Origin: a virus
Lineage: Duplodnaviria > Heunggongvirae > Uroviricota > Caudoviricetes
Length of the DNA stretch: 64,000 bases
IMG/VR virus record: IMGVR_UViG_3300032167_007646
Reading direction: 5' to 3' (one strand)
Shown here piece by piece: positions 22,552-60,080 of the stretch. How positions within the stretch are numbered: the first letter of the stretch is position 1; every line of letters starts with the position of its first letter. The position numbers and the translations under genes were made by a program. The notes under the pieces are model-generated. The model had not been told where the DNA came from. It did not search any database and saw only the letters and a program-made list of their open reading frames with translations.

Positions 22552-22607
22552 TCCCCTATATTTATTCTAAACAAATATAAGTATTTATGCTCAAATTTCA
22601 TGTATTT

Positions 22608-33760: not shown

Positions 33761-33771
33761 AATATACCACC

Positions 33772-42388: not shown

Positions 42389-42392
42389 AACC

Positions 42393-43277
42393 TCACTTCA
42401 AAATTGTAACTTTTTCACCCATTTGTCTTTCAAACGCACTATAGCAAGACATTTTAGGTGGTCTATCAAATACTGCAAAAACTATTTTATCAAAACTATT
42501 TTCAAACACTTCTAAATTTATTAAATCTATCCAATTCTTTGCTATAACATTTGGGTCATTATCAAATACACCACAGCCAAATGCACCTAAAATAAGAGTT
42601 TTACAACCTCTTTCTTTAAACTCTAGCAATATCTTAAACATACGATTTTTCATATCCCAATCAGACTCTTTTACACCATTTCTCATATCTACTCTTTTGA
42701 GAATTGCACCTCTGTTAATTGCTGGACAAGTTATAACATCTGCTAAAACATATTCTACATTTTTATAATCTCCATTCTTAAAGAAAGGTACTTTTGGAGA
42801 AAAAATCATATTATCTGTATAATCAGGTAATGGATGTTTAAAATTCTCTGTATAATACTGATGTGCTTCATCTGTCATTAAAGAATCATATAATGCTGAA
42901 CACAAACACAAACTTTCTTCTTGTGCTTTTGCACCTGTAAGCCAACCACCACCTGGATTTCTTGCAGAAGCAAAATTCAAAACACCAAGATTATCTGTAC
43001 CCTTTAATCTTAATATAGCATCAACTGTCTTTTCTGTTGTTAATTCTATATCTATTTTACTAAAATTGTCTAACTTATTATATAAATTAAATGAGGGATA
43101 TTTTTTATTTTCACTTATAAAACTTGTATTATATTTCATTCTGTCAATAGCACAACTAATATCAATAATTTTTCCATTATATGAATATCTACCACTTTTA
43201 CAAATTTCTAATACAGATTTTGCATTTGGAACTATTGCGAATCTATCTCTATCCATCATAATTACACCACCAATCAA
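42393..43277 (-). CDS. TIGR02452/DUF2263 macrodomain protein, bacterial-type poly(ADP-ribose) glycohydrolase
   Basis: VLNFASARNPGGGWLTGAKAQEESLC (GGG-X7-QEE), IFSPKVPFF, LILGAFGCGVF.N. Confidence 0.9.
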   Translation of the reverse strand: MIGGVIMMDRDRFAIVPNAKSVLEICKSGRYSYNGKIIDISCAIDRMKYNTSFISENKKYPSFNLYNKLDNFSKIDIELTTEKTVDAILRLKGTDNLGVLNFASARNPGGGWLTGAKAQEESLCLCSALYDSLMTDEAHQYYTENFKHPLPDYTDNMIFSPKVPFFKNGDYKNVEYVLADVITCPAINRGAILKRVDMRNGVKESDWDMKNRMFKILLEFKERGCKTLILGAFGCGVFDNDPNVIAKNWIDLINLEVFENSFDKIVFAVFDRPPKMSCYSAFERQMGEKVTILK

Positions 43278-44899
43278 TTTACTTTTTCTAATTTACTATT
43301 CTCAAATTTATAGCAATTATTACAAATTTCTATTATCTTTGGTCTATGAGTTACTATTACAACTGTCTTATCTTTTAATACACTTTTTATTAACTCAACC
43401 ATTTTTTCTTCTGTTTCTACATCTACATTACTTGTAGGTTCATCCAACAAATAAATTTCTTTATCTTTTCTTAATAAACCCCTAATTAAATTTAATCTTT
43501 GTCTTTGACCTGTTGAAACAAAGACACCCCTCTCACCTAATAAAGTATCTAAACCATATTTTTGTCTATCAAACCAATCTTTTAACCCTACCTGTTCTAT
43601 ATAATCTATCAACAATTCATCTGAAATATTTTCACTACCTAAAACTAAATTATCCCTTAAACTCATATCTAATATTTCAGTATCTTGCGCTATAAATACA
43701 CACTCTAAACGCTTATCTGTCTTTTCACCATTTATATACACATTATCTGTCTCTATTTCACCTGATAATATATGAAGTAAAGTAGTTTTACCTTGACCTG
43801 ATTCACCATAAATACAAGTAATATCACCTCTATTTAATTCAAACAAAGGAATATTTATATGTACTAACTTATCTATATTTTCTTTTTCTATTTGATAAGT
43901 AAAATCTAAATTCTCTATTTTTGCACTTACAAAATCATTCTCATCTAATTGATTTCTCTTATTCATATCTGCAACTACTTCATCTAATTTTTTCTTTGCA
44001 CCCAAAAATTCCATATTTTTTTCAAAGGTTACAGAAAAATGTTTTGCAATATGAACCAATTGTAACCCTACAACAGATATTAAAGAGAAAAAGCCAACTG
44101 CATCAAATGAAGTACCTTGTAAAAAATTAAAGTATATTAACAAACAAATAGGTACAAACATAAATATTGACATTTTAAAGAAACAGAAAAAGAATTCTTT
44201 TGTCATACTATATTTTATAGTTCTTCTTCTACAGTCCTCAACTCTTTCTACCATTTTACTATCTATAAAATCAAAACCTTGCATTTTTTGAACTGTACCT
44301 ATATTTATAACTGTATCAGCAACTAACTTATTTCTTAAACCCTCTGCTTCTGTTAATTCACTTGCTCTTTTCTTTACAAATCTACTTCCTATTATTTGAA
44401 AAGTTACAGCCAACAATATTAAAAAAACAAATACTAAACCTAAACTCCAATGAAAATCCCATATTTTATAACTAAAGAATAAAATATAAAACAATGATAA
44501 AGGAAATTGCTGAACAGTCTGTGTATAAGCATTAACTTGACGAGCAATCATTTTTGTTAATAAACCACTTATATATCCTGTATTATATTTTTTAAGAACA
44601 GTAGGCTTTATATTATATATTTTCTTAAAGTATAATGAACTTACACCATTTTCAATACTTGTTAAAGACATATCATTATAACAATCTGCTATAAACTCTA
44701 ATACAGCCCAAATAAAGAAAAATAAAGCATAATGCAAAATTAATATAGGTAAATTTTCTATATCATTTACAACTTTTTCAGTTAATCCTGCTAATATTAA
44801 AACATAATTACAACTAAATATAGACCATAAAGCAGAAAAACAAACTTCTATTATAGGTCTCCATTTTGGTATTCCCTGAAATACTTTCACTATACTCAC
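43274..44899 (-). CDS. ABC exporter, fused permease + ATPase
   Basis: Multiple TMs; Walker A GESGQGKTT, signature VSTGQRQR, Walker B LLDEPT, H-loop VTHR. Confidence 0.92.
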   Translation of the reverse strand: MSIVKVFQGIPKWRPIIEVCFSALWSIFSCNYVLILAGLTEKVVNDIENLPILILHYALFFFIWAVLEFIADCYNDMSLTSIENGVSSLYFKKIYNIKPTVLKKYNTGYISGLLTKMIARQVNAYTQTVQQFPLSLFYILFFSYKIWDFHWSLGLVFVFLILLAVTFQIIGSRFVKKRASELTEAEGLRNKLVADTVINIGTVQKMQGFDFIDSKMVERVEDCRRRTIKYSMTKEFFFCFFKMSIFMFVPICLLIYFNFLQGTSFDAVGFFSLISVVGLQLVHIAKHFSVTFEKNMEFLGAKKKLDEVVADMNKRNQLDENDFVSAKIENLDFTYQIEKENIDKLVHINIPLFELNRGDITCIYGESGQGKTTLLHILSGEIETDNVYINGEKTDKRLECVFIAQDTEILDMSLRDNLVLGSENISDELLIDYIEQVGLKDWFDRQKYGLDTLLGERGVFVSTGQRQRLNLIRGLLRKDKEIYLLDEPTSNVDVETEEKMVELIKSVLKDKTVVIVTHRPKIIEICNNCYKFENSKLEKVN

Positions 44900-44927
44900 C
44901 TACTTTATCACACATCATACCTATTTA

Positions 44928-44956
44928 ATTATATCATATTTAAAAATGTTTGTCAA
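44928..44956 (-). promoter_or_regulatory. Consensus sigmaA promoter for the ABC-PARG-FAD operon
   Basis: TTGACA, 17 nt, TGnTATAAT. Confidence 0.85.
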
Positions 44957-44969
44957 TATATAACAAAAG

Positions 44970-45003
44970 AAAAGCTATTCAAAGTTTACTCTGAATAGCT
45001 TTT
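44970..45003 (-). terminator. Terminator after adhesin gene
   Basis: aaaagctattca/tgaatagctttt. Confidence 0.8.
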
Positions 45004-45015
45004 ATATATTAATTG

Positions 45016-48000
45016 TTACTCTTTTTTATTTTTTAATATTACGATATATGCCCCAAAAGAACCTAAAATAAGCATTAGGCCTATTAATCTATAATATTTA
45101 TAACCATTACCACCTGTATTTGGTATAGTATCAGATTCTATAGTATCATAATAATTTTCAAAAACTATATATCCATCAACTGTTGTTTCCAAATCAGGAC
45201 TAATAGTTATTACACCATCTAATCCTACAATTACTGTATATACAGTTTCATCCAATTTATAATTTGCTGGTGCTTTTATTTCTTTAAGATAATAAGTCTC
45301 ACCTAAAGTTAATGCAGGAAAATAATATAAACCATTATCATAGTCAATAGAATTTTCTATTAAATCAGTACATTCAAAATCTGAATATAATCCAAACTCT
45401 GCAGCATACAATAATTTATTATTATCCCCATCTACTTTTTGAATTGTAAATGAACCTTTTCTATTTGCTATAAATATATTTGCAACGTGGTCTCTACACT
45501 CAAAATAAGTAATAAATTTACCTGCTAATCTTTCTGCACTATCACCTTTATCTACAGATAAGAAAAAGTATCTATTTTCACCATTTGAAAAATAACCATC
45601 TGGCACACTTACTTCTCTTACTTTTAACAAAGTATTCAAAGGTAATAGTAAACCATCTTCATTATTTAACCAAATAATTTGTCCATTTTCATCAGTTGTT
45701 TTATTACTCAATAAAACCCAAGGGTCTAACATTTGATTATTTATATAATCTAAAACTTCTTCTTTAGAAGATAAAGAGTTTAATGACTCTAATTCTTCAA
45801 CAGTTAAAGTTCTCATTTTATACAATTCAAATTCAGCACCTTGCAATTTTAATTCCAAATCATTAGCGTCATATTTATGAATTATAATTTCTGTTACATT
45901 TGCGTCAACATTACCCTCTGGCTGCACTATTGTTATATCATTAGATATATCATCACCTAAATTCTTAAATCCTGAAATATGTGCATTATTACTTATTGTT
46001 ACAGTTTGACCTGATATACCTATTATTCTTACTGAATAACTTACCCTATAATAATTTTGTACTACATCATTATCAATAATACAAGTCATTGTATGAATAC
46101 CAGGGTCATATAATAATCTAAACAAATCTTCATCCAAAGCATACCAATTTTCTTTATCATCACTATACTCTACAACTACAGAATCAGTTAAAAGATTCAT
46201 ATCTTTTGTCATTTCATCTATAATATGAATTCTATTTATACCCTCTAATAATGGATTTATAGCTTCTACAATAACTTCATATTTAGCAAGATATTTATTT
46301 GTATTATCTGGTACTTGCACCATTTGCTTCTCTAATACAGTATGTTTATACTCATATACTGAATTACTTAAACTTTCTAATTCACCAGTATTTAAATAAG
46401 CATAAGATTCATTACCTAAATTATATCTATATATACCCTCATTATTTAATTTATTTACATCTAAAGCCACTTTATACCTAATTATTGGAGAATAATAACG
46501 ACGACTCCATTCTTCTGTATACCAACAATAATTTGGAGTTATACCATAATAAGGTATTTCTAGTTCAAAACCAAAATCTGACTGCTCTTTTATAGTTGCC
46601 ATAGGAACAGAAACATAAATAGGATTATCAGATTCATCTTGCGTAGAATCCAAAAAATAATTTGCATTCTCATTTATATTTAATAAATTACTCTCCCAAG
46701 CATATTCACTATCTTCAAAAGGATATAAATAATAACTTAAATTTTCTGTATCTTTATTTATATCATCTACCCAATATACTTCTAATGAATCTTCCACATA
46801 TTTTGCATAAGTAATATCTTCAAGAGTATCTATATAAGTAAATCCTTTACCCTCTGAATAATTCATTACATTATGACGTATTTCATAAGTTAAAATTAAC
46901 TCTTTACCATCTGGACTTAATTCCTCATTTATAACATTTTTTCTAAAATACTTATAATTATTTCTACTTTGAACAATTAAAGTACTTTCTCCTCTTAATG
47001 GACCTACCCAACCATTTGTATACCAATCACAAAAATTCTTATGAATCTTAAAATCTTCCTTTGCACCCTCCAAAGTCATAGGAAATTCTAAATGTATATA
47101 CAAATCTTCTGGATATGCTGATAAACCACCATAAGAAAAGTCATCTGCATTATTATCATCCGCTAATGAGAAATATATATTAGGTGAGGGACCACCCTCA
47201 TAATTCTTATTATTTGTTCTATCAAAGAAAAGCAATCTATTTAAGATAGTATCAGTAATATCCTCACCATTTTTTGTTTTTATAGTAAAATCTATACCTA
47301 AATTTCTCGCTTCTTCTTGACTATATAATATATAAGAACCATATAAATCTGGAGTATCCAACTTCAACTTATCTATATAAGTAATATCACCATTTTCCTT
47401 AAATGGTGTATAATCTTCAAAAAAGAAATCTGATAATGGCTTATCCGCAGGTACAAACCAATCAATATACCAAGTTGTATATAAATTACCATGCTCATCT
47501 GATTTAATACCTGTATTACCCTTCTTAATTGTTGAAGGTTTATCTATAACCACAGTTTCATCAATAAATCCATTTTTTTCTACTTTTGAATGATTTACAA
47601 CATATTTACCGTCATTTTGCTCTAATTTTTCACTATACGTTGTAGCATATTCTATCATTACATACAATATACTACATTCCAAATCAGGTAATAAATATTT
47701 AAAAGATTTACCATACCAATAAATTGCTGAACCATCTGTTATAGGAAAATTATCCTCTGTTAAAGAATCAAATTCTTCTTGTGAATTACACTCTATCCAA
47801 GGAATTCTTTTATATACATCATCATATCCTTCCTCTGTACTATAAGCAATTATACTACCACCCTGATATGGAAATACATAATCTATTTCCTCTGATAATG
47901 TATCTGTAATTAAATAACCACCATAATCTATATGTTCATCAGAATACATACTTAGGTTCCAGTCAACATAACCTCTTCCATTTTTATAATTATCCAAATA

Positions 48001-49629
48001 AACTATTTTATCTATTAAATCTATTTCTTCAAAATAAAAATAATCTGAATCACTAAAAGTTTCATCTTCCATAATAATATCAATACTATTATTTATTTGT
48101 ACACTATCTAAATCTTCTAAATGATAATACTCAAAAAAATCAGTCTCTATACATACATTATATTTTAACTCTGCAAATACATCAACAGGAATATTAAAAG
48201 GTTCTTCAAAAATAATCTCTGTTTTTATTTTTTCTTCATCTTTTATATATTCAATAGTAATTTCATTATTTGGTATTACATATTCAGTCAAAGTACCCTG
48301 TTTATCAGTTATTTCAAGTCTTATATCCTCTATAACTAATATATCCTCTAACTCTTTATCTTTATACTCCAAATAAGTTTCAAAAACTTCATAACCATAT
48401 GCAAACTCTAAAATATCTATAATAGATTGTACTTCTATATTTGTATAATTATTTATTCTTACATTATAAGAGATAATATTTTTACCTCTTTCCCAATTTG
48501 GATGACCAAAAGAACCCAAATCTGTTCCTTCTTTTAAAATTTCACCTTTTGATTTATCTAATTTTATAGTTATAATATTACCTTTACCTAAATCAATAGT
48601 AACACTATCACCATTTGTATTATTCCATAAACCAGAAAATTCTAAATTCCATTTTATTACAGACTGTTGAACACCTTCATCATTTAAAACAACATATATT
48701 TTACCATCTGAACTAATATGATAATCACCATAAATTATTCCATCTGAACCTACTAATTGTCCATCAATAGGATTTCCTACAGTGATACCCGCAAATTCCC
48801 AAACATAAAATTTATTTAGCTCCAATAAATTTGAACTTGTAGCAAACTGTAAAGTTAAATCTACATCAAAATCCAAATATACATTCATATCAGAGGGAGC
48901 TTCACCTGCTATTAGGTCATATCTATTATCTTCTGATATAATATAAGCAGCTATCAGAAATTCATCCATACTATGAAAATCTGCAATATCATAAATATTA
49001 CCACCTATTTCTATGGTGTCTGATAAGAAAGAAACATCATTAGACATAAGTTCAACAGAAGTTAATTCATCCAACATCTCTACTGATGTATCAAAAACAA
49101 CTTCTTTTTCTTCTATCTTAATCGCTTCCTCACTTTCATTACTGCTATTTTCTTTTGAAGATACTTCTTCATCTTTCAAAACTTCCTCAGTTTCAATAAT
49201 ATTCTCATTAGAAATTTCAATTTTATCTTCTTCAAATTCTTTTTGATTCTCTATCACTTCTTCAAAAGAATTTTCTAAATTCTCAACTGAATTTTCTAAA
49301 CTTACCTCAACTTCTCCATTATCTGAGGTCAAAGGTTTACTATCTTCCTCACTCATATTCAAAATTGTTACATCTCCATTAGATTCTGAATTTTCACTAT
49401 AATTATTATTTAGTTCTTCTTCTTCATCTAAAATCATTAAAGGATTATGTAAACCCATTTTCTTAAATTCTGCTAAACTCTCCTTATTATCTATAATAGT
49501 ATTTATGACTACTATATCAGAGTCATCTAAAGTATCTAACGCAAAAATAGAAACAGTATTAAAAATATTTAAAGAAAATAATAAGAAAGCAATCAAAAAT
49601 GATATTATTCTATTTATAAATTCTTTCAT
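45016..49629 (-). CDS. Large sortase-anchored adhesin / pilus tip protein
   Basis: Signal peptide, acidic linker, Ig-like repeats, SpaA/Cna-B domains (KLQGAEFELY, YYLKEIKAPANY), IPNTGG sorting signal + TM + basic tail. Confidence 0.88.
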   Translation of the reverse strand: MKEFINRIISFLIAFLLFSLNIFNTVSIFALDTLDDSDIVVINTIIDNKESLAEFKKMGLHNPLMILDEEEELNNNYSENSESNGDVTILNMSEEDSKPLTSDNGEVEVSLENSVENLENSFEEVIENQKEFEEDKIEISNENIIETEEVLKDEEVSSKENSSNESEEAIKIEEKEVVFDTSVEMLDELTSVELMSNDVSFLSDTIEIGGNIYDIADFHSMDEFLIAAYIISEDNRYDLIAGEAPSDMNVYLDFDVDLTLQFATSSNLLELNKFYVWEFAGITVGNPIDGQLVGSDGIIYGDYHISSDGKIYVVLNDEGVQQSVIKWNLEFSGLWNNTNGDSVTIDLGKGNIITIKLDKSKGEILKEGTDLGSFGHPNWERGKNIISYNVRINNYTNIEVQSIIDILEFAYGYEVFETYLEYKDKELEDILVIEDIRLEITDKQGTLTEYVIPNNEITIEYIKDEEKIKTEIIFEEPFNIPVDVFAELKYNVCIETDFFEYYHLEDLDSVQINNSIDIIMEDETFSDSDYFYFEEIDLIDKIVYLDNYKNGRGYVDWNLSMYSDEHIDYGGYLITDTLSEEIDYVFPYQGGSIIAYSTEEGYDDVYKRIPWIECNSQEEFDSLTEDNFPITDGSAIYWYGKSFKYLLPDLECSILYVMIEYATTYSEKLEQNDGKYVVNHSKVEKNGFIDETVVIDKPSTIKKGNTGIKSDEHGNLYTTWYIDWFVPADKPLSDFFFEDYTPFKENGDITYIDKLKLDTPDLYGSYILYSQEEARNLGIDFTIKTKNGEDITDTILNRLLFFDRTNNKNYEGGPSPNIYFSLADDNNADDFSYGGLSAYPEDLYIHLEFPMTLEGAKEDFKIHKNFCDWYTNGWVGPLRGESTLIVQSRNNYKYFRKNVINEELSPDGKELILTYEIRHNVMNYSEGKGFTYIDTLEDITYAKYVEDSLEVYWVDDINKDTENLSYYLYPFEDSEYAWESNLLNINENANYFLDSTQDESDNPIYVSVPMATIKEQSDFGFELEIPYYGITPNYCWYTEEWSRRYYSPIIRYKVALDVNKLNNEGIYRYNLGNESYAYLNTGELESLSNSVYEYKHTVLEKQMVQVPDNTNKYLAKYEVIVEAINPLLEGINRIHIIDEMTKDMNLLTDSVVVEYSDDKENWYALDEDLFRLLYDPGIHTMTCIIDNDVVQNYYRVSYSVRIIGISGQTVTISNNAHISGFKNLGDDISNDITIVQPEGNVDANVTEIIIHKYDANDLELKLQGAEFELYKMRTLTVEELESLNSLSSKEEVLDYINNQMLDPWVLLSNKTTDENGQIIWLNNEDGLLLPLNTLLKVREVSVPDGYFSNGENRYFFLSVDKGDSAERLAGKFITYFECRDHVANIFIANRKGSFTIQKVDGDNNKLLYAAEFGLYSDFECTDLIENSIDYDNGLYYFPALTLGETYYLKEIKAPANYKLDETVYTVIVGLDGVITISPDLETTVDGYIVFENYYDTIESDTIPNTGGNGYKYYRLIGLMLILGSFGAYIVILKNKKE

Positions 49630-49655
49630 ATTAACACCACTTTTCTATATATTAA

Positions 49656-50351
49656 TTACTCTACAACTCTTTCACCACGAACTATTAACCTTTGTGTTCC
49701 TACTCCAGGTGGAGTACAAGTAATCAAACTTACATATTCTTTACCCTCTATTATATTTAAACACTCTAAATCCTCAGGTTCCACTATATCTACATTATCA
49801 ACTTTATATTTATACTTTTCACCTAAAACTGTTATGAAAAAAGAATCACCATTCTTCATTTGGTCTAAATCTGTTAATAATCTAGCAGTAGCTAAAGCAG
49901 TATGCCCACATATAGCCACATGAGTATTTATTTTACCTGTTGGAAAAGAAGTATATTCCATATGTCCTACACCTACTGATAATTCTGGTCCTTCTGTCCC
50001 ATGATATATCGCTAATTCTACATTTATTTTAGGTATCTCTAATACACCCATTACCCCATCATTATGTAAATTTAAGATTGAATTGTAATCATCTAATTCA
50101 CCATTTATAAATTTTGCTTTTGCTCTACGAATATCATTTATCTTAAACAATTCTTCATTGTAAGCGTTTGCTCTATTTATTTCAACATCTTTCTCTGTTA
50201 TAGGCATTTTAGAAACATACTCACCATATTCTTTTATTACAAAACTTTGGTTTCTTCTATTTACAAAATCACTTATTTCAGGATAAAAAGTTACTATTAA
50301 ACCTACTAATACAAAAAGTATACTTATTACACAAATTAGATTTTTTTTCAT
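49656..50351 (-). CDS. srtC: Class C (pilus) sortase
   Basis: MGVLEIPKINV, GHTAL, LITCTP, RLIVRG catalytic H/C/R. Confidence 0.93.
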   Translation of the reverse strand: MKKNLICVISILFVLVGLIVTFYPEISDFVNRRNQSFVIKEYGEYVSKMPITEKDVEINRANAYNEELFKINDIRRAKAKFINGELDDYNSILNLHNDGVMGVLEIPKINVELAIYHGTEGPELSVGVGHMEYTSFPTGKINTHVAICGHTALATARLLTDLDQMKNGDSFFITVLGEKYKYKVDNVDIVEPEDLECLNIIEGKEYVSLITCTPPGVGTQRLIVRGERVVE

Positions 50352-50383
50352 ACTCTTAACCCCTTAACCTAAAAATAAGAAAT

Positions 50384-50412
50384 GAACCCCTCACCCTCTG
50401 AATGAGGGGTTC
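50384..50412 (-). terminator. Hairpin between pilin and sortase genes
   Basis: gaacccctca/tgaggggttc. Confidence 0.7.
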
Positions 50413-50421
50413 TATATAAAA

Positions 50422-52032: not shown

Positions 52033-52065
52033 ATTTTATTTTTTTTATTTTTAAATTACAATAAA

Positions 52066-52094
52066 ATAACCTTGTAACAAAGTTACAAGGTTAT
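52066..52094. repeat. Perfect 13-bp inverted repeat upstream of pilin (operator or hairpin)
   Basis: ataaccttgtaac-aaa-gttacaaggttat. Confidence 0.7.
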
Positions 52095-52300
52095 GGTTTT
52101 TATATAAGTAAATTTAGGCATAGGACATCTACAAAAGGAATTAATTTCCTTTTATAACAATATTTAATTCACTTCTTCAAATAACCAATAAACTTATAAC
52201 AGAGTTACAAAAATTATCTACTGTTATACTAATTATTTTATCAGTTATCATTTATGTCCAAATTATAACATACTGAGCATATATTTTCTTTATTATGTTA

Positions 52301-52333
52301 AAAGAGTATTGTAATATGTTTACAATACCCTTT
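52301..52333 (-). terminator. Probable terminator
   Basis: aaagagtattgta/tacaatacccttt. Confidence 0.6.
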
Positions 52334-52349
52334 TATTTCAACAACTTAA

Positions 52350-53510
52350 TTACTTTAATACAAATATGTATTTACCCTGTAATTTATCTACAAATTTACT
52401 TGCACTCTTTTCTATTTTCTTCTTACTAATAGGTATAAAATCCAAATTACTTAAAGATTTCTTTTCTTTATAATCCATAAAATATTCTTCATGTCTTATT
52501 CCATTTATATCACAATATTTTATTAAATTATTTACCAATTCTTTTGTTATTCTTATATAATTATCAAACACACGATTATATACCATATTATAAATACTAC
52601 TATATACAAAATAATCATAATCTTTTATATGCTTTTTCATAGTATCTAAAAACATCTTTTTATATTCAGGGTCCTCTTTATCAAAAGTTGTTGCATCTAT
52701 TTCAAATTGAACAGTAAAATTCAAATCATTATCTTTTGCAAACTTCTTATACTTATCAATAGTTTTTTCACTACCATATTCACAAATCAATATAGCATAT
52801 TCAGTATCCTCTGCTTTACCATTTTTTTCAGGGTTATAATCAAATTTATCAAATGATAATACCTTTTCTTCCATCCATTTTGGAAAACTTATAGAACTAA
52901 ACCAACCATCTACATAAACACTAAAAATATCATTTTTACCATTCACTAATTCTCCTACTAAATCAAAACTACTTATACGCATATATAAAGTTAAATCTTT
53001 ATTTGTATGCTCTGGTTTTAATTGAACTACTGGTATATCCTCTCTCTTTGTATCACCTTTACCTGTAATATAAGGAACATTATCTCTAACCCTTACACTA
53101 AAATTAGTAGGATTACAATAAGAACATAAATTTTGTATATCTTCAATTCTTACCTTTTTCTTCTCATTGAATGTGGGAAAAATAATATATCCACCTACAA
53201 TGACACCATTTCTTTCTATTAAACTCTCAATTTGAATATCATTATTTATAGGATTACCATCCATATCATACATAGGTAAATCTTTTAATTGTTTTGAACC
53301 ATTAGAAATTATATTACATTTTTCATCTACACTAAAATCACAAGATTTACATTTCTTTATTAACTTCTTTGCTTCATCAATGCTAAAATGAGAAATAATC
53401 CAATCTTTAGACCCCTGCATACCTAATTCTGATGGTTTTCCTTTCAACATTAAACCAACTAATCCCCAACCTTTATCAATTATTGTACCTAATACTTTCA
53501 TATATAACAC
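52350..53510 (-). CDS. Hypothetical protein
   Basis: 386-aa ORF with RBS. Confidence 0.8.
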   Translation of the reverse strand: MLYMKVLGTIIDKGWGLVGLMLKGKPSELGMQGSKDWIISHFSIDEAKKLIKKCKSCDFSVDEKCNIISNGSKQLKDLPMYDMDGNPINNDIQIESLIERNGVIVGGYIIFPTFNEKKKVRIEDIQNLCSYCNPTNFSVRVRDNVPYITGKGDTKREDIPVVQLKPEHTNKDLTLYMRISSFDLVGELVNGKNDIFSVYVDGWFSSISFPKWMEEKVLSFDKFDYNPEKNGKAEDTEYAILICEYGSEKTIDKYKKFAKDNDLNFTVQFEIDATTFDKEDPEYKKMFLDTMKKHIKDYDYFVYSSIYNMVYNRVFDNYIRITKELVNNLIKYCDINGIRHEEYFMDYKEKKSLSNLDFIPISKKKIEKSASKFVDKLQGKYIFVLK

Positions 53511-53514
53511 TCCT

Positions 53515-54192
53515 TTATAACTTCATAAATCCCCATTCTAATAAATTTCTTAAAAAATAAACATATATAAATCTACCAAATATTGCTAATATTAACGAAT
53601 AAATTAAAATCTTAAACGATTGTTTTGGGTTATTCCATAACACTAATAAAGCCAAAACCCAATTCACTGCTTCCATACCATTATATCTAAAATTAAAATA
53701 ATCAAAACCAAATGAAAAAGCCATTACAAAAAATACTGCTAAAATTACAGAAGATAAAAAAGTTGCCATTTTACCTGTACCCCTTGCATACCAACATAGG
53801 ATTGAAGGAATAGGAGAAGCAAAAGCCAATATCAACCAATAAATAATAACTCTCTCAAACACAAAACCCTCTATAAAATATGTAGCAGTATAATAACTCA
53901 ATAACATACCTATAAAAAACACAAAAACATTTATGACTGCTCTTAAAGGAGTTTTACTGACTACACTTATTGTTAAAGCACATAATAACCATATTGACAT
54001 TCTACTAAAAAATGCACCTAAATCAAAAACCATAAATATCTCATGAATGTACTCTAACTCTATAAAATCTAAAATTCTTGAAATCAAACCCAATAGAATA
54101 CCTATTGTAAATGATATATAAGTATTAAATACTTTATTTCCAAAAGGTCTGTCTATAATTGGTTTTCTTATTTTTTCTAATAACCTTACCAT
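53515..54192 (-). CDS. Polytopic membrane protein, DUF6518-like
   Basis: About 7 TM; SKTPLRAVINVFVFFIGMLLSYY. Confidence 0.7.
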   Translation of the reverse strand: MVRLLEKIRKPIIDRPFGNKVFNTYISFTIGILLGLISRILDFIELEYIHEIFMVFDLGAFFSRMSIWLLCALTISVVSKTPLRAVINVFVFFIGMLLSYYTATYFIEGFVFERVIIYWLILAFASPIPSILCWYARGTGKMATFLSSVILAVFFVMAFSFGFDYFNFRYNGMEAVNWVLALLVLWNNPKQSFKILIYSLILAIFGRFIYVYFLRNLLEWGFMKL

Positions 54193-54217
54193 TTACACCA
54201 CCCCTCTAACTTATAAT

Positions 54218-54242
54218 AGGCGTAGAGATAAACTCTACGCCT
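54218..54242 (-). terminator. Terminator ending the PARP operon
   Basis: aggcgtagag/ctctacgcct. Confidence 0.75.
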
Positions 54243-54251
54243 ATCTAATTT

Positions 54252-57200
54252 TTAACTATTTAAACCTAATTTCTTTACTGCACTATCAAAATATTTCTTT
54301 TGTTTATCTGAACATCTACCTGTCTTTGATATTGTTGTTGAAACACCCTTTTCTATATCACTTAATGTCTTAAAATCAGAATGAGCCACTACTTTACAAG
54401 CAAGTGCCTTTATATCATCACTCTCTTGAACATCTTTCTTATCATCTGCAACCTCATCTGATTTTATAATACCTAATTTAACACAAGCCCTATTTATATA
54501 ATAAAGTTGTTTTTCAGAACAAGTTTTCTTTTGACTTACAGTTTCAGATATACCTTTTTCCAAACTATCTAATGTATTGAAATCAGGATGCTCTTTTAAT
54601 TTTTCAGCCTTTTGAACTCCTGTTAAACCTGATTTATCTCTACCACCCTCGTCCTCTACTAATACATCTTCAATATTTAATTGATTTGGTTTTGGTAAAT
54701 TATTATGTTCTGTTGCTAAATCAATAGCAGTTGCACCATATTTCATTAAGATTTTCCAAATATTTTTAACATCATGTTTTAACAAGTAGTATCTACCTAA
54801 AATATCCGATAACTCAACAATTTCTAATTTAGTTAATTGCATTTTATCCATTTCTCTTAAGTCTTTTAATACCCTATATGTTAATTCAAAATGATTATAA
54901 ATAAGATTATGATTATAACATTCAGCCCTTAAAGCATTTCTATATTTCTTTAATTTTCTACCATCTAATGAACCTACTACATTACAATCTGCCACTATTT
55001 CTTCTACACCATTATTCCAATCATTTCTATCAACACAACTCATTAAAACTTCTAAAAATCTCTCTAATTCTTTTGCTGAATCCTGATATTTTACTTCATT
55101 AAACGCTACAGCCCTTCTTATACCATTATCTGAATATCCACTATAACGACCTGTTCTTCTCTCTGCTGCAACATTCACTTCATGATATTTAATATGTTCA
55201 TCTAAATATCTCTTTACTCTTTCTAATACAGGACCTTTAATAAGTTCATCTTGCTTTCTTTCTTCCTCTTTTGCCTTATATTCCTCTATTAAAGGAATTA
55301 AAGAGGTTTCAATTACCATATAAAAAGCACTAACATTATTATACCACTTTATAGAATTAAAGAATTCACCTGCATCCATATCACTATGATGATACTTAAA
55401 ATCACCACTACCATTTTCATTATATTTTTCATTCAATGCAGTTCTATACTTTTCAACACCTATAAATGAACTGTTTTTCTTTAATTCTTTAAGAACATCT
55501 ATTCCATTCTGATACAATAACCTATAATGTTTTTCAAAAGTTATTTTATCATTCTTCAATCCAATAAATAATTCTTTTAAAGCATTATATAAGTTTTCAA
55601 AATCATCACTGTAGTCAGATATACACTTATTATAAATTTCTTCTGGTATAGCCTGTTTAAGTTCATCTATCACACTATCTGTATGTAATGGACTATCCAT
55701 ATTGCAGAAATTAACATATGCTAATGACGCTGCTGAACCCCTTTCAAATAATCTCTTTTCCTTAAAGATTATAGAAAGAACACCTAATGTAAATGTATCT
55801 AAATCTGGAGTATCTAATAATCTCTTTAAGTCATTCTTCAAGGCACCCAAATTTAAATAATCATACAATTTTTCTTCTTCTGCTTCTTGTTTAGCATTAC
55901 TATAAGTTTCCATTATATCTTTCAACATATCAGCATAAGGAGCCATTATCTTAAATGCTACTAAATCATATAAATTCTTCTGTTTCATATAAGGTTGCAT
56001 TTTCTTATTAGCACGCTTAGCAATCAATAAATCACAATAATCCTCAAAATACTCCCTATTTGTTTTCTCTTGATTTACAACTAAATCATCATAATCTACA
56101 AATAAGTCTGCACGATTATTTGCTTCTTTATAATCCTTTAAGTTAGATACTAACTCGCCAAGAATATTATATAATTCTCCACAATCTTTCTTAAATTTCT
56201 TAAAGTTACCTTTATATTTTTTCAAAATTGCCTTATAAAATTCTTCTCTTGGTGGGTATTCTTGTGTAGCTAAACGCATAACCTTATCCTTATCTAAATT
56301 CATTAAATTATAATGCTGACAAGTCATAATAGTATGTTCTATACCCTTTGAAGTTGTAATTAAAGAACATAAAAATTGTGCTATTTCTTCTTCTGTTTCT
56401 AAATAAGCAACACATTTTAATAACTTCTGAATATTAACTAAAGATTCCTTTATAATATTTCTATATCCACCTTGTATTACCCTAAAATATCTTGAAACAT
56501 TAAAAGGTATAATATCTGCATTAAATTTAGCATCTAAATTATAACGACCTTTTTCTATCTTTGAAGTACCATCTATATCTATACCTATCCTCTTATCTAC
56601 ACCATCTAACATATATTTAGAATAACCCTCATCCATATTCTCTGGTCTTTTAATAACAGGTTTGCTACTCATAAACATTGTCATACAATCATTTATATAA
56701 TTTATAACCCTATTATACCCATACGCATCTTTTGACATTATCTTATCTAATTCTTCCTCAGATATTAAACCTTTATTTACAAGTGTTTTAATATCTTTTA
56801 TAGCCATTAATTTTGTTACCATTGTTTCCCAAGTTAATACAGCCTTATAAAAAGAAACTTGACCATTTATATTCCAATATTTCAATTCAGGGTCTCTCTC
56901 ACTTACTTTCATCTTTTCAGATAAATAACTTGTTATAAATTCTGTAAATGCTGTTTTTAATAAACTACTTTTTGCAAGATTATAAGATATTAACAAATCC
57001 TGTGTATATTTCAAATAGTCAGGATGATGTTGTCTTGTAGCCTTACTTATAATTCTATTTAATCTATCACACAAAGATTTTGGAATAGGTAATCCAACTT
57101 CAACAAACTTCAAAGCATATTTTACATAACCTGCTGTATTCATTTGACTTTTATCTTCTTCTTTAACAGGTATTTTAACAACTTTTCTATCCTCTATTTT

Positions 57201-58034
57201 ATTATATAAATTAGGGTCTAAATCTCCATTTAAACAAGAAATTATATTCTCCTTTATCCACTCCAAAGGTTTTTCTGTTTTAGTTCCATCACCAAATTTT
57301 ATAGGATATAAACCTGTTTCTTTATTTTCAACAAGAGTATCACCATTCCATTTTACTAAAAATGTAGTTAAATCACGCAAACCTTCTACTCCATCTTTTA
57401 ATAAAACTTCACCTGTATGACCTGCCATATATTTATAATACTCTTTCTGCCATTTCTTTTCCATAATAATAGCAATTATCTTTATATCTCTTAATGTTTT
57501 AGACTGAATAGTTCTCATAGAAGCTAAACTTGTCTTATCTATATTGAAAAAGTCTGCTGCACAGTTACAACCAAATCTTAAAACCTCATGAGTTTTCTTA
57601 TTCGCAGCAAAATGAGCATATCTTACAGGGCGAGGACATAAATCACACTTATGTCCATTATTTTTACCCGCATCTGTCATTCCATCATATACCCAATCTT
57701 CCAAATTAAACTTCTTTATACCCATTTCCTCTGTCAATTTCTTTATTTTCTCTTTTATTTTTTGATTTCTCTGTTCTATCTGTAATTCAACAGTACCATT
57801 CAAATCCTTATATAATTCCACAGAAAAACCCCTAAAATATGAGTCTAATAATTGTCTTTGAACAGGATTAAATAAAGCATAAACTTCTTCACTCTCATCA
57901 CCCTTATAACGATTTTCAATAGCATCCATTACAACTCTATCAAATTCCTCTTTTGTTTCCTGCTCTCTCTGAATCTCTTCATCACTTTTAGTTATCTGCA
58001 TATCTTTTGCATCATCTATATACAAACGAGACAT
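54252..58034 (-). CDS. 1260-aa hypothetical protein with N-terminal Zn-binding motif and two C-terminal ~50-aa repeats
   Basis: WVYDG...CDLC...RYAH...FGCNC; repeats HPDFNTLDSLEKGI...CSEKQ..Y...KLG and HSDFKTLSDIEKGV...CSDKQ..Y...KLG. Confidence 0.85.
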   Translation of the reverse strand: MSRLYIDDAKDMQITKSDEEIQREQETKEEFDRVVMDAIENRYKGDESEEVYALFNPVQRQLLDSYFRGFSVELYKDLNGTVELQIEQRNQKIKEKIKKLTEEMGIKKFNLEDWVYDGMTDAGKNNGHKCDLCPRPVRYAHFAANKKTHEVLRFGCNCAADFFNIDKTSLASMRTIQSKTLRDIKIIAIIMEKKWQKEYYKYMAGHTGEVLLKDGVEGLRDLTTFLVKWNGDTLVENKETGLYPIKFGDGTKTEKPLEWIKENIISCLNGDLDPNLYNKIEDRKVVKIPVKEEDKSQMNTAGYVKYALKFVEVGLPIPKSLCDRLNRIISKATRQHHPDYLKYTQDLLISYNLAKSSLLKTAFTEFITSYLSEKMKVSERDPELKYWNINGQVSFYKAVLTWETMVTKLMAIKDIKTLVNKGLISEEELDKIMSKDAYGYNRVINYINDCMTMFMSSKPVIKRPENMDEGYSKYMLDGVDKRIGIDIDGTSKIEKGRYNLDAKFNADIIPFNVSRYFRVIQGGYRNIIKESLVNIQKLLKCVAYLETEEEIAQFLCSLITTSKGIEHTIMTCQHYNLMNLDKDKVMRLATQEYPPREEFYKAILKKYKGNFKKFKKDCGELYNILGELVSNLKDYKEANNRADLFVDYDDLVVNQEKTNREYFEDYCDLLIAKRANKKMQPYMKQKNLYDLVAFKIMAPYADMLKDIMETYSNAKQEAEEEKLYDYLNLGALKNDLKRLLDTPDLDTFTLGVLSIIFKEKRLFERGSAASLAYVNFCNMDSPLHTDSVIDELKQAIPEEIYNKCISDYSDDFENLYNALKELFIGLKNDKITFEKHYRLLYQNGIDVLKELKKNSSFIGVEKYRTALNEKYNENGSGDFKYHHSDMDAGEFFNSIKWYNNVSAFYMVIETSLIPLIEEYKAKEEERKQDELIKGPVLERVKRYLDEHIKYHEVNVAAERRTGRYSGYSDNGIRRAVAFNEVKYQDSAKELERFLEVLMSCVDRNDWNNGVEEIVADCNVVGSLDGRKLKKYRNALRAECYNHNLIYNHFELTYRVLKDLREMDKMQLTKLEIVELSDILGRYYLLKHDVKNIWKILMKYGATAIDLATEHNNLPKPNQLNIEDVLVEDEGGRDKSGLTGVQKAEKLKEHPDFNTLDSLEKGISETVSQKKTCSEKQLYYINRACVKLGIIKSDEVADDKKDVQESDDIKALACKVVAHSDFKTLSDIEKGVSTTISKTGRCSDKQKKYFDSAVKKLGLNS

Positions 58035-58052
58035 TCAAACCACTCCTTTCAA

Positions 58053-59600
58053 CTAATTTCCTATCTCTACTTCTACAATATATCTTATTTTATATCTGTT
58101 CTGATTATATACTATAAATTCATTATGAAATAAAGAATAATAATTTGTCTTAAACATTTGATAAAACTTTTCTTTACTTATCTTCAAATCTTTTGTTCCA
58201 CCAATACCCTTTATATCACAACCATACTTAAAAGCATCTTGACCTACACCCATAACACTATTACAACCCGTAGGTGCATGAGCAAAATTACGAGCATGCA
58301 TTTCCATGTGCATTTTACCTAATGCTACATCACATAATAACAAGAAATATCTATTACCTTTATTACGAGTACCACCAAAACGAGAAGTAGAATACTGTAA
58401 TGCTTTTGAATATTCTCCAAAATATACTCCTGGACCAAACATAGCGCCTGTCAACTGAATATTAGGTCCTAAATTTGCAGGAAGTTTAATACTTGTAGAT
58501 AAAATACCCAATAAATTTGCACCTCTAGTTCCATGAAATAATGAAACTACATTACCACAACTTGCATCAAATTGAGGTGCATTTAACTGATTTACCTCAT
58601 AAACATTTACTAATCTTGTTCTTAAATGGTGATTATCTAATTGTTCTTTCTTCATTTTCTCTTTAATTGAATTAAATATACCCTCATCTGTTACAAGAGT
58701 TATTTCACTATTTAACCCTTTATATTTTGTTGTAGTATCAACATCATAATTAGTATTTAATACAGCATTTGATAAACCTACTTCCAATATTTCCAATAAA
58801 TCATATTGTTCCATCAATTTTTCACCTGTATCTAATAACCAATCTGTTGAACCTCTACTTATAACACGAGGTATTGTCATATTATACATATTAGATAATT
58901 CTGCTATATCATTACGAAGTTTCTCAATATTCCTTTTAGCAGTCGCTAATTTATTTTGAACTTCACTTATTTGCTTTAATATTTCTCTACCCCTTAATAT
59001 CATTTTATGATTTATCATACCAAGAGGGTTTTCTGAACTTTGGAATTGTTCAGGATTTATAGACCTTTTAATAGTCTGATTAGCCTCAGCATAAATGGTT
59101 TCCACCAATTTTGATACTTTTGGAGAAATAGCTTTAATTTCTGTTTTCTTTTCTGGTTTTGTTGCCTTTAATTCCTCTGCTAACTCCTTATTTTTATCAA
59201 TTATACCCTTTGCAACATTACTATCTAAAACATTTTTCTCTGTTACAAAACCTTTTGCTGCTGCACTACAGTTAGGATAAATAGAAATGACTTCAACTTC
59301 TTGATAACCCTCTTTTAACCTTTTCTTACATTCATCCAAATAAATATTTTTTACCATTATCTCACTTGCAAATCTTCTAATTCTTGCCTGTATATCATCT
59401 GAACCTAAACGACCACTAGTTATTGCTAAATAACACATTTTTCCATCTTTTAGAATTTCTATATTACAAAATTTATTACTTACTTTATTAGTCTTTATAT
59501 CACCTTTTGAATAAATATAAGATGCTATTTTCATACATTCTACATTTACATTTGTATAAACTTTATCAATATCACCAATTATTTTTATATTATCAGCCAT
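58053..59600 (-). CDS. Poly(ADP-ribose) polymerase (WGR-like + regulatory + catalytic domains)
   Basis: SNKFC.IE...SGRLG (WGR-like); MYNMTIPR (regulatory); FHGTRG, GAMFGPGVYF, ALQYS, LLLCDVALGK, HNEFIVY (H-Y-E triad). Confidence 0.93.
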   Translation of the reverse strand: MADNIKIIGDIDKVYTNVNVECMKIASYIYSKGDIKTNKVSNKFCNIEILKDGKMCYLAITSGRLGSDDIQARIRRFASEIMVKNIYLDECKKRLKEGYQEVEVISIYPNCSAAAKGFVTEKNVLDSNVAKGIIDKNKELAEELKATKPEKKTEIKAISPKVSKLVETIYAEANQTIKRSINPEQFQSSENPLGMINHKMILRGREILKQISEVQNKLATAKRNIEKLRNDIAELSNMYNMTIPRVISRGSTDWLLDTGEKLMEQYDLLEILEVGLSNAVLNTNYDVDTTTKYKGLNSEITLVTDEGIFNSIKEKMKKEQLDNHHLRTRLVNVYEVNQLNAPQFDASCGNVVSLFHGTRGANLLGILSTSIKLPANLGPNIQLTGAMFGPGVYFGEYSKALQYSTSRFGGTRNKGNRYFLLLCDVALGKMHMEMHARNFAHAPTGCNSVMGVGQDAFKYGCDIKGIGGTKDLKISKEKFYQMFKTNYYSLFHNEFIVYNQNRYKIRYIVEVEIGN

Positions 59601-59621: not shown

Positions 59622-60014
59622 TTATACACCATATTCTCTTTTAATACGATTTTCTAAACTTTCTAAATAATTTGTTACACAACCTAATTGAAAATTTCTT
59701 GAAGTCCTATCCCTTCTACGAGCCGCATTCTCCCATAATCTCTTATGACCTAATACAGAACTTATATCTGAATGGAATAAACCATTTGTTGAAGTATAAT
59801 CTATAATTTCTTTATCAGTTCTACCATTAAATTCTATACCATTACTACTTAATATTGCTTTACACAAATTTAATAAAGATAAATCCATATTTTTAACTAT
59901 TTCATCACAATCTGAATTACCCCACCAATAAGGAGAATATCTATAACTTTCTACAAATATTCTCTGTTGTTTTGCATGTTCTATATAACTTTTCGCTGAC
60001 ATCATAATTATCAC
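59622..60014 (-). CDS. Hypothetical protein, paralog family D
   Basis: YIEHAKQQRIFVES...LLNLCK...LWENAARR. Confidence 0.78.
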   Translation of the reverse strand: MIIMMSAKSYIEHAKQQRIFVESYRYSPYWWGNSDCDEIVKNMDLSLLNLCKAILSSNGIEFNGRTDKEIIDYTSTNGLFHSDISSVLGHKRLWENAARRRDRTSRNFQLGCVTNYLESLENRIKREYGV

Positions 60015-60080
60015 CTTTTTTCTATTTATTTACTTTAAAATAAAATAAACTGTCATTTATTTATGCTCAAAAATTTTCTT

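Follow-up and report, generated by a model that had tools for sequence, protein, structure and literature searches.

The 64,000-nucleotide stretch of DNA analysed here (the window) encodes a PARP and a bacterial-type PARG which, in a reading of the sequence that we hold with evenly divided confidence, may constitute a real but optional pair of enzymes for writing and erasing PAR. The claim of a self-contained writer and eraser is supported only in part. The invariable partner of the PARP is an orphan protein of 1260 amino acids and not the PARG.

Identity of the PARG and PARP genes

The PARG gene (42393..43277; this and all other features below lie on the minus strand) was identified by profile and structure-sequence matches. 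Its product covers all 146 positions of the PF10021 profile (PARG_cat_microb; 129 bits, cut-off 23.5; E 2.3e-37) and positions 3-266 of 266 of TIGR02452 (210 bits, cut-off 50). Over its entire length it can also be aligned with two PARGs of solved structure, from Thermomonospora curvata (3SIG; E 1.4e-36) and from Deinococcus radiodurans (5ZDB). The catalytic loop (42915..42953; residues 109-121), aligned to 3SIG and 5ZDB, reads GGG-WLTGAKA-QEE and fits the PARG signature GGG-X6-8-QEE, while the second, diphosphate-binding macrodomain loop, GAFGCGVFDNDP, aligns with GAWGCGVFGNDP of the T. curvata enzyme and is conserved. Like these two PARGs (E ~1e-36 over the full length), the window protein thus keeps the catalytic QEE and the diphosphate-binding loop; unlike them, it is phage-borne and stands behind a consensus sigmaA-type promoter, and its identity to them is ~35-40%. 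Family membership together with the motif is no chance match, and the original prediction of a PARG with a GGG-X7-QEE loop about 15 kb from a PARP is fully borne out. Translation probably begins at ATG 43259, since GGTGGTG precedes this codon and the resulting 288 aa match the length of homologues. The next-closest PARGs (50-53% identity) lie in unrelated gene contexts without a PARP.

The PARP ORF (58053..59600) lies 14.8 kb upstream of the PARG and, by profile matches, encodes a WGR-like region, a PARP_reg (HD) domain and an ART domain with the residues H356, Y393 and E494. The protein scores 95.3 bits against PF00644 (cut-off 26.7) and 45.3 bits against PF02877 (cut-off 26.8); its match to the WGR profile PF05406 (residues 38-102; E 4.6e-4) reaches 20.7 bits, below the cut-off of 22. 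The orthologue in the relative L022 was flagged 'WGR (weak)', and PF05406 is present in more distant homologues. The closest solved relatives are catalytic fragments of PARP2, PARP1 and PARP4, and the three catalytic residues align with the PARP2 triad and are invariant across 15 homologues; here too, membership and triad are no chance match, and neither are the Nudix and promoter matches described below. An intact PARP is conserved in about 40 protein clusters. The window PARP is no more than about 32% identical to cellular PARPs.

A His occupies the position of PARP1 Y986 beside the catalytic Glu, where the sequence reads HNE. This residue speaks for an enzyme that forms no chains in vivo and might instead work as a mono-ART, with host targets or nucleic acids as its substrates, or consume NAD+ to help take over the host, in which case no PAR would be made and the phage would offer the PARG no product to erase. 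The lack of a PARG in most PARP-bearing phages points the same way, as does the capacity of PARP-family enzymes to modify nucleic-acid ends (PMC9458441). We nevertheless consider such a non-polymerising enzyme very improbable, as the H-Y-E triad is complete, Glu included, and does not vary. The protein also retains an HD regulatory domain and a WGR-like region, features typical of polymerising PARPs that respond to breaks. Bacterial homologues of the same architecture, moreover, produce PAR in vitro (PMC5966428).

Organization of the PARP operon

The PARP operon consists of a 130-aa ORF, the PARP and the 1260-aa zinc-ribbon protein, perhaps with a 225-aa gene added. Its first gene, the 130-aa ORF (59622..60014), returned no family match and is preceded, at a distance of 57 nt, by TTTGAGCATAA (60071-60061(-)), a variant with two mismatches of the element-specific upstream motif TTTGGACATAA. 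When up to one mismatch is allowed, TTTGGACATAA occurs 13 times, where 3.7 occurrences would be expected, and 12 of the 13 sites are on the coding strand. The relatives L008 and L022 have the same variant, TTTGAGCATAA, in front of their PARP operons, which agrees with the earlier proposal that the PARP unit lies behind a novel motif at 60061.

In the orphan partner (54252..58034), a CxxC...CxC zinc ribbon at residues 130-158 is invariant, and two helical CSxKQ repeats lie towards the C terminus. The protein adjoins the PARP in every relative examined (about 35 protein clusters), and the match lists of the two proteins have 12 contigs of equal length in common; the Aneurinibacillus and Bacillus genomes searched contained no homologue of it. 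Structure prediction of the PARP with partner residues 1-480 gave an ipSAE of 0.43 (best control, 0.00); by comparison, 58 of 80 solved complexes and 2 of 110 mismatched pairs attain this mark. The prediction, in which the runs had at least 85% of their contacts in common and the partner pLDDT was 71 or higher, weakly suggests a PARP-partner complex. A 12-bp hairpin just past the partner stop codon (54216..54244) lacks an obvious T-tract on the coding strand, and a full terminator occupies the equivalent position in L001.

It is conceivable, although we would rather doubt than assert it, that huge gut phages possess a new two-component ADP-ribosylation system, with the WGR-HD-ART PARP and the 1260-aa zinc-ribbon protein as an obligate pair and the PARG as an optional, early-expressed reset. 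The partner could then be an in-trans DNA/RNA sensor, an HPF1-like specificity factor or the main acceptor.

Promoter and neighbours of the PARG

The unit formed by an ABC exporter, the PARG and a FAD-dependent protein is headed by a sigmaA-type promoter (44928..44956) of the form TTGACA-17-TATAAT, which matches the consensus at 12 of 12 positions, with a TG upstream; this sequence (44956-44928(-)) is the sole perfect promoter of its type within 40.5-60.4 kb. An equivalent 12/12 promoter lies immediately 5' of the PARG in L012, and before a 90-aa ORF and the PARG in L001, so that the consensus promoter noted earlier at 44928 not only exists but recurs. Upstream of it, a terminator-like hairpin with a T-run (44970..45003) ends the adhesin gene. 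The ABC exporter, a fusion of TMD and NBD identified by family matches (43274..44899), stands between promoter and PARG and is missing from the equivalent position in L012/13 and L001. The gene for the FAD-dependent protein (PF21688; 40958..42388) begins 4 nt past the PARG stop and belongs to the conserved backbone, with 74-97% identity in relatives, whether PARG-bearing or PARG-less. In this lineage the PARG, where present, always has the FAD-dependent gene immediately downstream and a perfect TTGACA-17-TATAAT promoter ahead of it, and the gene order running from the partner to the PARG and the FAD-dependent gene is common to the window, L012/13 and L001. In the window, a cargo island (45016..54192) encoding a 225-aa ORF, a 386-aa ORF, a SpaA-type pilin, a sortase and an LPXTG adhesin of 1537 aa separates the PARP operon from the PARG.

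NUDIX hydrolase

A NUDIX hydrolase had been proposed as a third member of the cycle. The gene is indeed present (2054..2575; upstream motif variant at 2647-2637), matches PF00293 (47 bits) and keeps the Nudix box (GX5EX7REUXEEXGU) complete, as G-SALKG-E-DKYACIK-RELFEETGI. Among the NCBIfam matches listed, the best was YfcD (46 bits, cut-off 152), NAD+ diphosphatase scored 20.6 bits (cut-off 158) and no ADPRase model appeared. A Pro ~16 residues after the Nudix box is an ADP-ribose-specific signature, and this residue is not present in the window protein. Being generic, 40 kb away and without a match to an ADP-ribose-pyrophosphatase model, the enzyme cannot be demonstrated to belong to the system and is excluded from it on present evidence. 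Pfam domains of the MacroD, TARG1 and ARH3 types, whose enzymes take off the ADP-ribose nearest the protein, were absent from the window ORFs scanned (nearly all ORFs of at least 95 aa).

Nature of the element

The window is part of an uncultivated phage-like element of very large size and low GC content, whose host is probably a Gram-positive bacterium of the animal gut. Its phage identity is circumstantial, because no structural phage genes were found within the 64 kb, and much of its content (including PFL, TrkAH, MgtC, CdaA, the sortase pilus and the ABC exporter) represents host-like functions. These two features would suit a giant plasmid or other extrachromosomal element on which PARP, partner and PARG formed a host-like module for DNA-damage or stress signalling, a role similar to one already proposed for bacterial PAR metabolism, and a 722-kb Aneurinibacillus plasmid does carry a PARP and PARG pair. 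We regard a plasmid as unlikely, however, given that the relatives of 395-652 kb encode the anti-Pycsar protein Apyc1, Thg1, Tpt1, many orphan methyltransferases and arrays of small paralogous ORFs, with genes all on the same strand, a gene set and layout typical of huge phages. In addition, several window proteins have homologues in gut 'Bacteriophage sp.' records, and the family occurs in none of the GTDB species genomes.

Distribution of PARP and PARG

Among the relatives, the PARG is present solely in the nearest sub-lineage (the window, L012/13 and L001). In a 395-kb relative only 5.5 kb separate it from the PARP, the PARG belonging to the transcription units that come next beyond the operon of PARP and partner; by our arithmetic, a random site in this contig would fall within +/-6 kb of the PARP ~3% of the time. 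In four more distant lineages (L023/24, L005/6, L007 and L011) no PARG was detected in the corresponding slot or within 10 kb of the PARP, and the flanking FAD-dependent gene is retained in the PARG-less L023/24 and L005/6. PF10021 occurred on 1 of 31 other PARP-bearing IMG/VR contigs (1 of 14 among those at least 90% complete), and none of 80 IMG/VR PARP loci had a PARG within 10 kb. Deposited phages showed a PARP in 8 records, a PARG in 20 and both in one. A comparable PARP (31-32% identity) is found in just two GTDB species genomes, each with PF10021 on the same replicon or contig, compared with a control rate of 1 of 14 genomes. In bacteria the correlation of PARG with PARP is weak (Perina et al. 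2014, PMC4245714). Independent distribution among relatives, which would tell against the earlier proposal, is therefore partly seen: the two enzymes go together in the nearest sub-lineage, but not within 10 kb in the four other lineages and on few of the viral contigs.

The pairing as such is already known, as active pairs have been published in two bacteria (PMC5966428): Herpetosiphon aurantiacus (PARP Haur_4763, PARG Haur_1618) and Clostridioides difficile CD160 (PARP QEW_4625, PARG QEW_4455), whose cognate PARGs reverse PARylation by these PARPs in vitro (PMC5966428, PMC8120803). The window PARP resembles theirs in its H-Y-E residues and in an ART domain preceded by PARP_reg and a WGR-like region; the window PARG, like theirs, belongs to the DUF2263/TIGR02452 type with GGG-X6-8-QEE, and the two genes share a genome in separate operons. 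Unlike theirs, the window pair resides on a huge phage-like element, its PARP operon includes the orphan 1260-aa zinc-ribbon protein, and its PARG is restricted to one sub-lineage.

Identical enzyme families occur in jumbo and huge phages (viral PARPs and viral bactPARGs are listed by Perina 2014, PMC4245714), a PARG in Bacillus phage G (gp114) and Lak phages, and a PARP in Xanthomonas phages XacN1 and Xoo-sp13, Stenotrophomonas phage CM1 and Klebsiella phages. In contrast to the window, these phages nearly always have one enzyme or the other; both are present in IMG/VR UViG_3300032132_000001 (~22 kb apart) and in the uncultured huge phage LR756511.1 (~400 kb apart). Their proteins are 25-37% identical to those of the window, and none is accompanied by the 1260-aa partner. 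The 722-kb plasmid NZ_CP116888.1 of Aneurinibacillus sp. Ricciae_BoGa-3 resembles the window in carrying a PARP (31% identity) and a PF10021 PARG ~70 kb apart, but belongs to a cultured bacterium and lacks a partner homologue. The statement that no such pair on a mobile element has been characterised is thus correct as regards characterisation, although uncharacterised pairs do exist on this plasmid and in the huge-phage records.

Discussion

We favour an optional pair because the family motifs of both enzymes are intact, the PARG is so near the PARP in the 395-kb relative, and the window, L012/13 and L001 share the gene order and the 12/12 promoter before the PARG. Further grounds are the PF10021 found with both related GTDB PARPs, the in vitro reversal of PARylation by cognate bacterial PARGs (PMC5966428, PMC8120803), and the strict adjacency of PARP and partner in all relatives with a weakly supportive complex prediction. 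The same reading is weakened by the absence of the PARG within 10 kb in four PARP-bearing lineages and at 80 of 80 loci, and from 30 of 31 contigs, by the PARP-free context of the next-closest PARGs and the single deposited phage with both enzymes, and by the weak correlation in bacteria (PMC4245714). The locus also turned up in no RNA run.

Several of these observations would also accord with an independent role of the PARG as an early counter-defence or immunity gene, removing ADP-ribose set by host or competitor ARTs on RNA or protein (for example at the 2'-OH or phosphate ends of RNA), its nearness to the PARP reflecting a shared cargo hot spot. We incline against this explanation, the main rival to the optional pair. 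Early anti-defence genes are often under host-type promoters, and a perfect one drives the PARG, which occupies a hypervariable slot among other accessory cargo and is missing from most PARP-bearing relatives and viral contigs. Bacillus phage G and Lak phages carry a PARG and were unmatched by the PARP query, and the RNA-repair genes (RtcB in the window; Thg1 and KptA/Tpt1 in relatives) fit an RNA conflict. Furthermore, both 2'-OH ADPr-RNA made by RhsP2 and 5'-phospho-ADPr-RNA are substrates for hydrolysis by bacterial-type PARGs, which shield cells from the toxin (PMC11833690). The distance of only 5.5 kb in the 395-kb genome and the PARG in both bacterial genomes with a related PARP argue against independence, and there is no known host ART target.

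Returning to the optional pair, we observe what the genes encode, their preserved motifs, the arrangement of the operons, the two kinds of promoter and the spread among relatives, and we infer enzymatic activity, timing, targets and the action of the PARG on the PARP product as follows. The sub-lineage would have acquired a bacterial-type PARG in a variable slot just downstream of the PARP operon, as a recent and optional add-on, and later insertions of the sortase pilus island and, in the window, of the ABC exporter would have widened the gap from ~5 to ~15 kb. In the mechanism that we find most likely, host RNA polymerase would transcribe the PARG from the onset of infection, and the element's own programme would turn on the PARP operon. 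Activation of the PARP would run through its WGR-like region, and the enzyme, probably together with the zinc-ribbon partner, would build ADP-ribose chains on itself, the partner or other targets, and the PARG would shorten them, thereby resetting the signal and limiting the NAD+ drain. Of the self-contained and possibly temporally split PAR cycle first envisaged, the location on one contig, the preserved catalytic motifs, the separate units and the two promoter types remain, whereas co-distribution is seen only in the nearest sub-lineage and the NUDIX enzyme, on present evidence, falls outside.

Writer and eraser pairing is not new in kind. The phage PARP lineage nevertheless bears on whether poly-ADP-ribosylation has a physiological role in the bacterial world, and supplies concrete proteins for expression. 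With the PARP always next to the same orphan partner and the PARG sometimes added, it offers a natural experiment with and without an eraser, and the phage PARG is a test case for a recent proposal in which bacterial PARGs confer immunity to ADP-ribosylating toxins. If the two-component reading is true, it would amount to a virus-run poly-ADP-ribose cycle inside bacteria.

PARP, PARG and their upstream signals

The original prediction placed a PARP and a bacterial-type PARG on the same element, and both were borne out. The ORF at 58053-59600(-) exceeds the cut-off for the PARP_reg and PARP catalytic domains, with a WGR match slightly under its cut-off, and its residues H356, Y393 and E494 align to the PARP2 triad and are invariant in 15 homologues. 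Residues 492-494 (58119-58127) are HNE, whereas PARP1 and PARP2 show YNE; elongation or branching of the chains could be altered by this His, which stands in for Tyr two residues ahead of the catalytic Glu. The ORF at 42393-43277(-) covers the complete PF10021 profile (E 2.3e-37), scores 210 bits against TIGR02452 (cut-off 50), carries the GGG-X7-QEE catalytic loop at residues 109-121, and aligns over its full length with the solved T. curvata and D. radiodurans PARGs, including this loop and the GAFGCGVFDNDP loop. Its start is likely the ATG at 43259, with GGTGGTG just before it, which would give a protein of 288 aa, matching the closest homologues. Judged by sequence, both enzymes look catalytically competent. 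A NUDIX hydrolase had been assigned to the same poly-ADP-ribose cycle: the gene is present at 2054-2575(-) with an intact Nudix box, but its part in the cycle was not supported, as there was no ADP-ribose-specific match and it lies 40 kb off. It is a generic Nudix hydrolase that adds nothing to the writer/eraser system, and no other ADP-ribose-processing domains were detected among the scanned ORFs of the window.

The sigmaA promoter proposed for the PARG unit was confirmed at 44956-44928(-) as TTGACA-17-TATAAT (12/12) with an upstream TG, preceded by a terminator at 45003-44970. A perfect sigmaA-type promoter stands ahead of PARG in all three PARG-bearing lineages: directly before PARG in the relative L012, before a 90-aa ORF and PARG in L001 (a locus on a 395-kb contig), and before the ABC gene in the window, where an ABC exporter (43274-44899) is interposed between promoter and PARG. 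Because in the 89% identical loci L012/L013 the same promoter is directly in front of PARG, with no ABC gene between, the exporter of the window looks like a very recent insertion in the PARG leader. The element-specific upstream motif, TTTGGACATAA, has 13 matches (with at most one mismatch) where 3.7 would be expected, and 12 of the 13 are on the coding strand. The copy said to head the PARP operon is indeed there, at 60071-60061(-), as a two-mismatch variant, TTTGAGCATAA, which is also found at 22595 and is kept ahead of the PARP operon in two relatives (L008 and L022). A variant of the motif also lies ahead of the NUDIX gene, at 2647. A further match, at 54144, falls within a 225-aa ORF and was set aside as probably due to chance.

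A conserved unit of PARP and an orphan partner

PARPs close to that of the window fall into about 40 protein clusters, and the adjoining 1260-aa Zn-ribbon protein (the partner; 54252-58034(-)) about 35; 12 contig sizes are common to the two match lists, and the partner gene begins 2-100 nt past PARP in every locus examined (L001, L005/6, L007, L008, L011, L022, L023/24 and the contig of P0005, an NCBI-sourced PARP). On the strength of these cluster counts, common contigs and adjacency, PARP and partner make up a conserved unit. The operon is closed by a terminator in L001, and the same position after the partner gene in the window holds a hairpin without a clear T-tract. P0005 was considered as the characterised C. 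difficile CD160 PARP and rejected; it comes from an 11-kb contig of assembly GCA_016852305.1, which looks like a metagenome, and the usual partner gene accompanies it there. When IMG/VR was scanned with single proteins, neither PARP nor PARG had a close relative there.

The partner has no family match in Pfam, PHROGs, NCBIfam or PDB sequences and no tblastn match in phages; neither GenBank phages nor five other PARP-bearing records contain a member of its family. Its best-conserved portion is the N-terminal 480 residues, which include an invariant CxxC...CxC at residues 130-158 and were modelled by AF2 (pLDDT 76.6) as a small beta zinc ribbon amid helices; the C-terminal 340 aa were modelled as helical (pLDDT 91.3), with two CSxKQ repeats. 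In searches of PDB and AFDB clusters neither model was matched convincingly to a known fold; at best, AFDB gave uncharacterised proteins at TM ≤0.5, and the ESM Atlas feature matches, all <0.9, are leads at most. When PARP and partner residues 1-480 were predicted as a complex, the ipSAE was 0.43 (best control, 0.00), with at least 85% of contacts agreeing between runs and a partner pLDDT of at least 71. This mark was attained by 58 of 80 solved complexes and by 2 of 110 mismatched pairs, and passes at 0.60 or lower are rated weak; a PARP-partner complex is thus weakly suggested by the models. Because the two genes are strictly adjacent, it is likely but unproven that their products are physically or substrate-related.

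PARG in a variable cargo slot

Carriers of PARG among the close relatives are the window, L012/L013/L014 (89% identical) and the 395-kb contig (L001/L003; 57% identical), and in every carrier lineage PARG lies directly 5' of a gene for a FAD-dependent protein (40958-42388(-) in the window). The latter is a backbone gene, 74-97% identical among relatives and more conserved than PARP, partner or PARG. Homologues of its product, a PF21688, COG2509-like protein, occur in 38 Campylobacter phage records and among gut 'Bacteriophage sp.' fragments.

Between the partner and FAD genes lies a slot that is a hot spot for cargo, filled differently in each lineage. It holds four small ORFs and PARG in L001 (15459-17995); a 225-aa ORF, a 383-aa ORF, a pilin, a sortase, an adhesin and PARG in L012/13; and the L012/13 content plus the ABC exporter between promoter and PARG in the window (42388-54252). 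L023/24 and L005/6 keep the FAD gene with a slot devoid of PARG, which contains a lone 225-aa gene in the former (L023 13882-14819) and an 85-aa ORF with a DUF6900 gene in the latter (L005 15515-16415). PARG was not found within 10 kb in L007 and L011. We regard it as solid that one sub-lineage gained PARG, along with a host-type promoter of its own, beside a much older PARP-partner operon. In the 395-kb genome PARG lies 5.5 kb from PARP, a distance with a chance of roughly 3% by a post hoc estimate.

Co-occurrence of PARP and PARG beyond this lineage

Among GTDB species genomes, just two encode a PARP of this kind (31-32% identity), and both also hold PF10021: Aneurinibacillus sp. Ricciae_BoGa-3 has the two genes about 70 kb apart on one replicon, a 722-kb plasmid, and Bacillus sp. 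M6-12 has them about 111 kb apart on the same replicon or contig. The control rate was 1 in 14 genomes. At least 159 PARP-like viral loci are present in IMG/VR; among the 31 searchable large PARP-bearing contigs, PF10021 was present in one, a 395,473-bp contig with terminal repeats, and none of 80 fetched loci had a PARG within 10 kb of PARP. In GenBank phages, PARP was found in 8 records and PARG in 20, LR756511.1 alone being common to both lists. The next-nearest PARGs (50-53% identity; loci L015 and L105) are on 31% G+C contigs. They were rejected as neighbours of partner or PARP, the upstream protein being unrelated, and the rest of these contigs showed no match to the window or its relatives.

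Nature of the element

The 64-kb window has a G+C content of 24-31% and a strongly negative GC skew, and its minus strand carries nearly all ORFs. By megablast, the stretch from 42 to 62 kb had no match, and the window no near-identical DNA, in PLSDB plasmids or GenBank phages. Host-like physiology genes comprise a pyruvate formate-lyase with glycyl-radical domain (3712-5964), its activase not being seen within the window, MgtC (22608-23273) and a TrkA/TrkH pair for potassium uptake (33101-35100). Three orphan N6/N4 DNA methyltransferases occur within 25 kb (12310-13080, 26194-27123 and 37352-38080), with no restriction partner recognised. At 19138-21261, a 707-aa protein with the CdaA N-terminal TM domain fuses the diadenylate cyclase CdaA to YbbR, the domain that is its usual regulator, and represents a c-di-AMP synthase on a phage-like element. 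The window, rich in accessory genes, further encodes a UDP-sugar epimerase, GNAT and TM2-domain proteins, a sortase-dependent pilus locus with an LPXTG adhesin, the ABC exporter and many small ORFs without any family match; neither tRNAs nor virion genes were found in the 64 kb.

The relatives reached through PARP are on metagenomic contigs as long as 395 kb and 652 kb, where the genes around PARP include anti-Pycsar Apyc1, Thg1, KptA/Tpt1, YAcAr and methyltransferases. Across L001 (352-2280), L005 (793-6445) and L011 (119-9501), the genes 5' of PARP include Apyc1 homologues, Thg1, KptA/Tpt1, YAcAr and an NMNAT-like nucleotidyltransferase. KptA/Tpt1 is an NAD+-dependent RNA 2'-phosphotransferase; together with RtcB of the window (6846-7934), these 5' genes form an RNA-repair and NAD+-linked neighbourhood.

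Homologues of the pyruvate formate-lyase and the FAD-dependent protein are found in human faecal 'Bacteriophage sp.' records. DNA nearly identical to 54252-59600 occurs in 20 DNA runs of animal gut or faeces (14 studies, sheep metagenomes among them), which contain 53-99% of its sampled words; the element, or close kin of it, is therefore widespread. No RNA sequencing runs holding the PARP-partner locus were found. The content of the relatives, the faecal phage homologues, the gut runs and the Gram-positive surface machinery point to a huge phage of a gut Bacillota host, a giant plasmid of such a host being less likely.

Coupled pair or independent eraser

In vitro, what bacterial PARPs make is removed by their cognate bacterial PARGs (PMC5966428, PMC8120803). 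This erasure, the 5.5-kb placement and the presence of PARG in both PARP-bearing cellular genomes lead us to favour, at about an even chance, a functional and coupled write/erase pair, in which PARG would be produced early by the host RNA polymerase and PARP would be produced under the element's own motif. Two points speak against a cycle that is obligatory: such an eraser is missing, near PARP or altogether, from most relatives and from almost every other PARP-bearing viral contig, and the PARP/PARG correlation in bacteria is weak according to Perina et al. (PMC4245714). The main rival, a PARG acting in counter-defence independently of PARP, strikes us as possible but rather doubtful. In its favour, bacterial-type PARGs strip 2'-OH and phosphate-end ADP-ribose from RNA and shield cells from an RNA-targeting ART toxin (PMC11833690), phage G and Lak phages carry PARG and gave no match to the PARP query, and PARG is located in the variable cargo slot with an early-type promoter in front.

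Systems of PARP and bacterial-type PARG have been characterised in vitro from H. aurantiacus and C. difficile CD160 (PMC5966428), lists of viral PARPs and, separately, of viral bactPARGs have been published (PMC4245714), and NAD+/ADPr domains are common among jumbo phages (PMC9503650). It had been proposed that no such pair encoded by a mobile element is characterised; in the literature searched we likewise found no description of a phage or plasmid with both PARP and PARG, but pairs do exist, unremarked, in public records. Since such systems are known and co-occurrences are on public record, the pair is not new in kind, and the more unusual feature is the obligate orphan partner of PARP.
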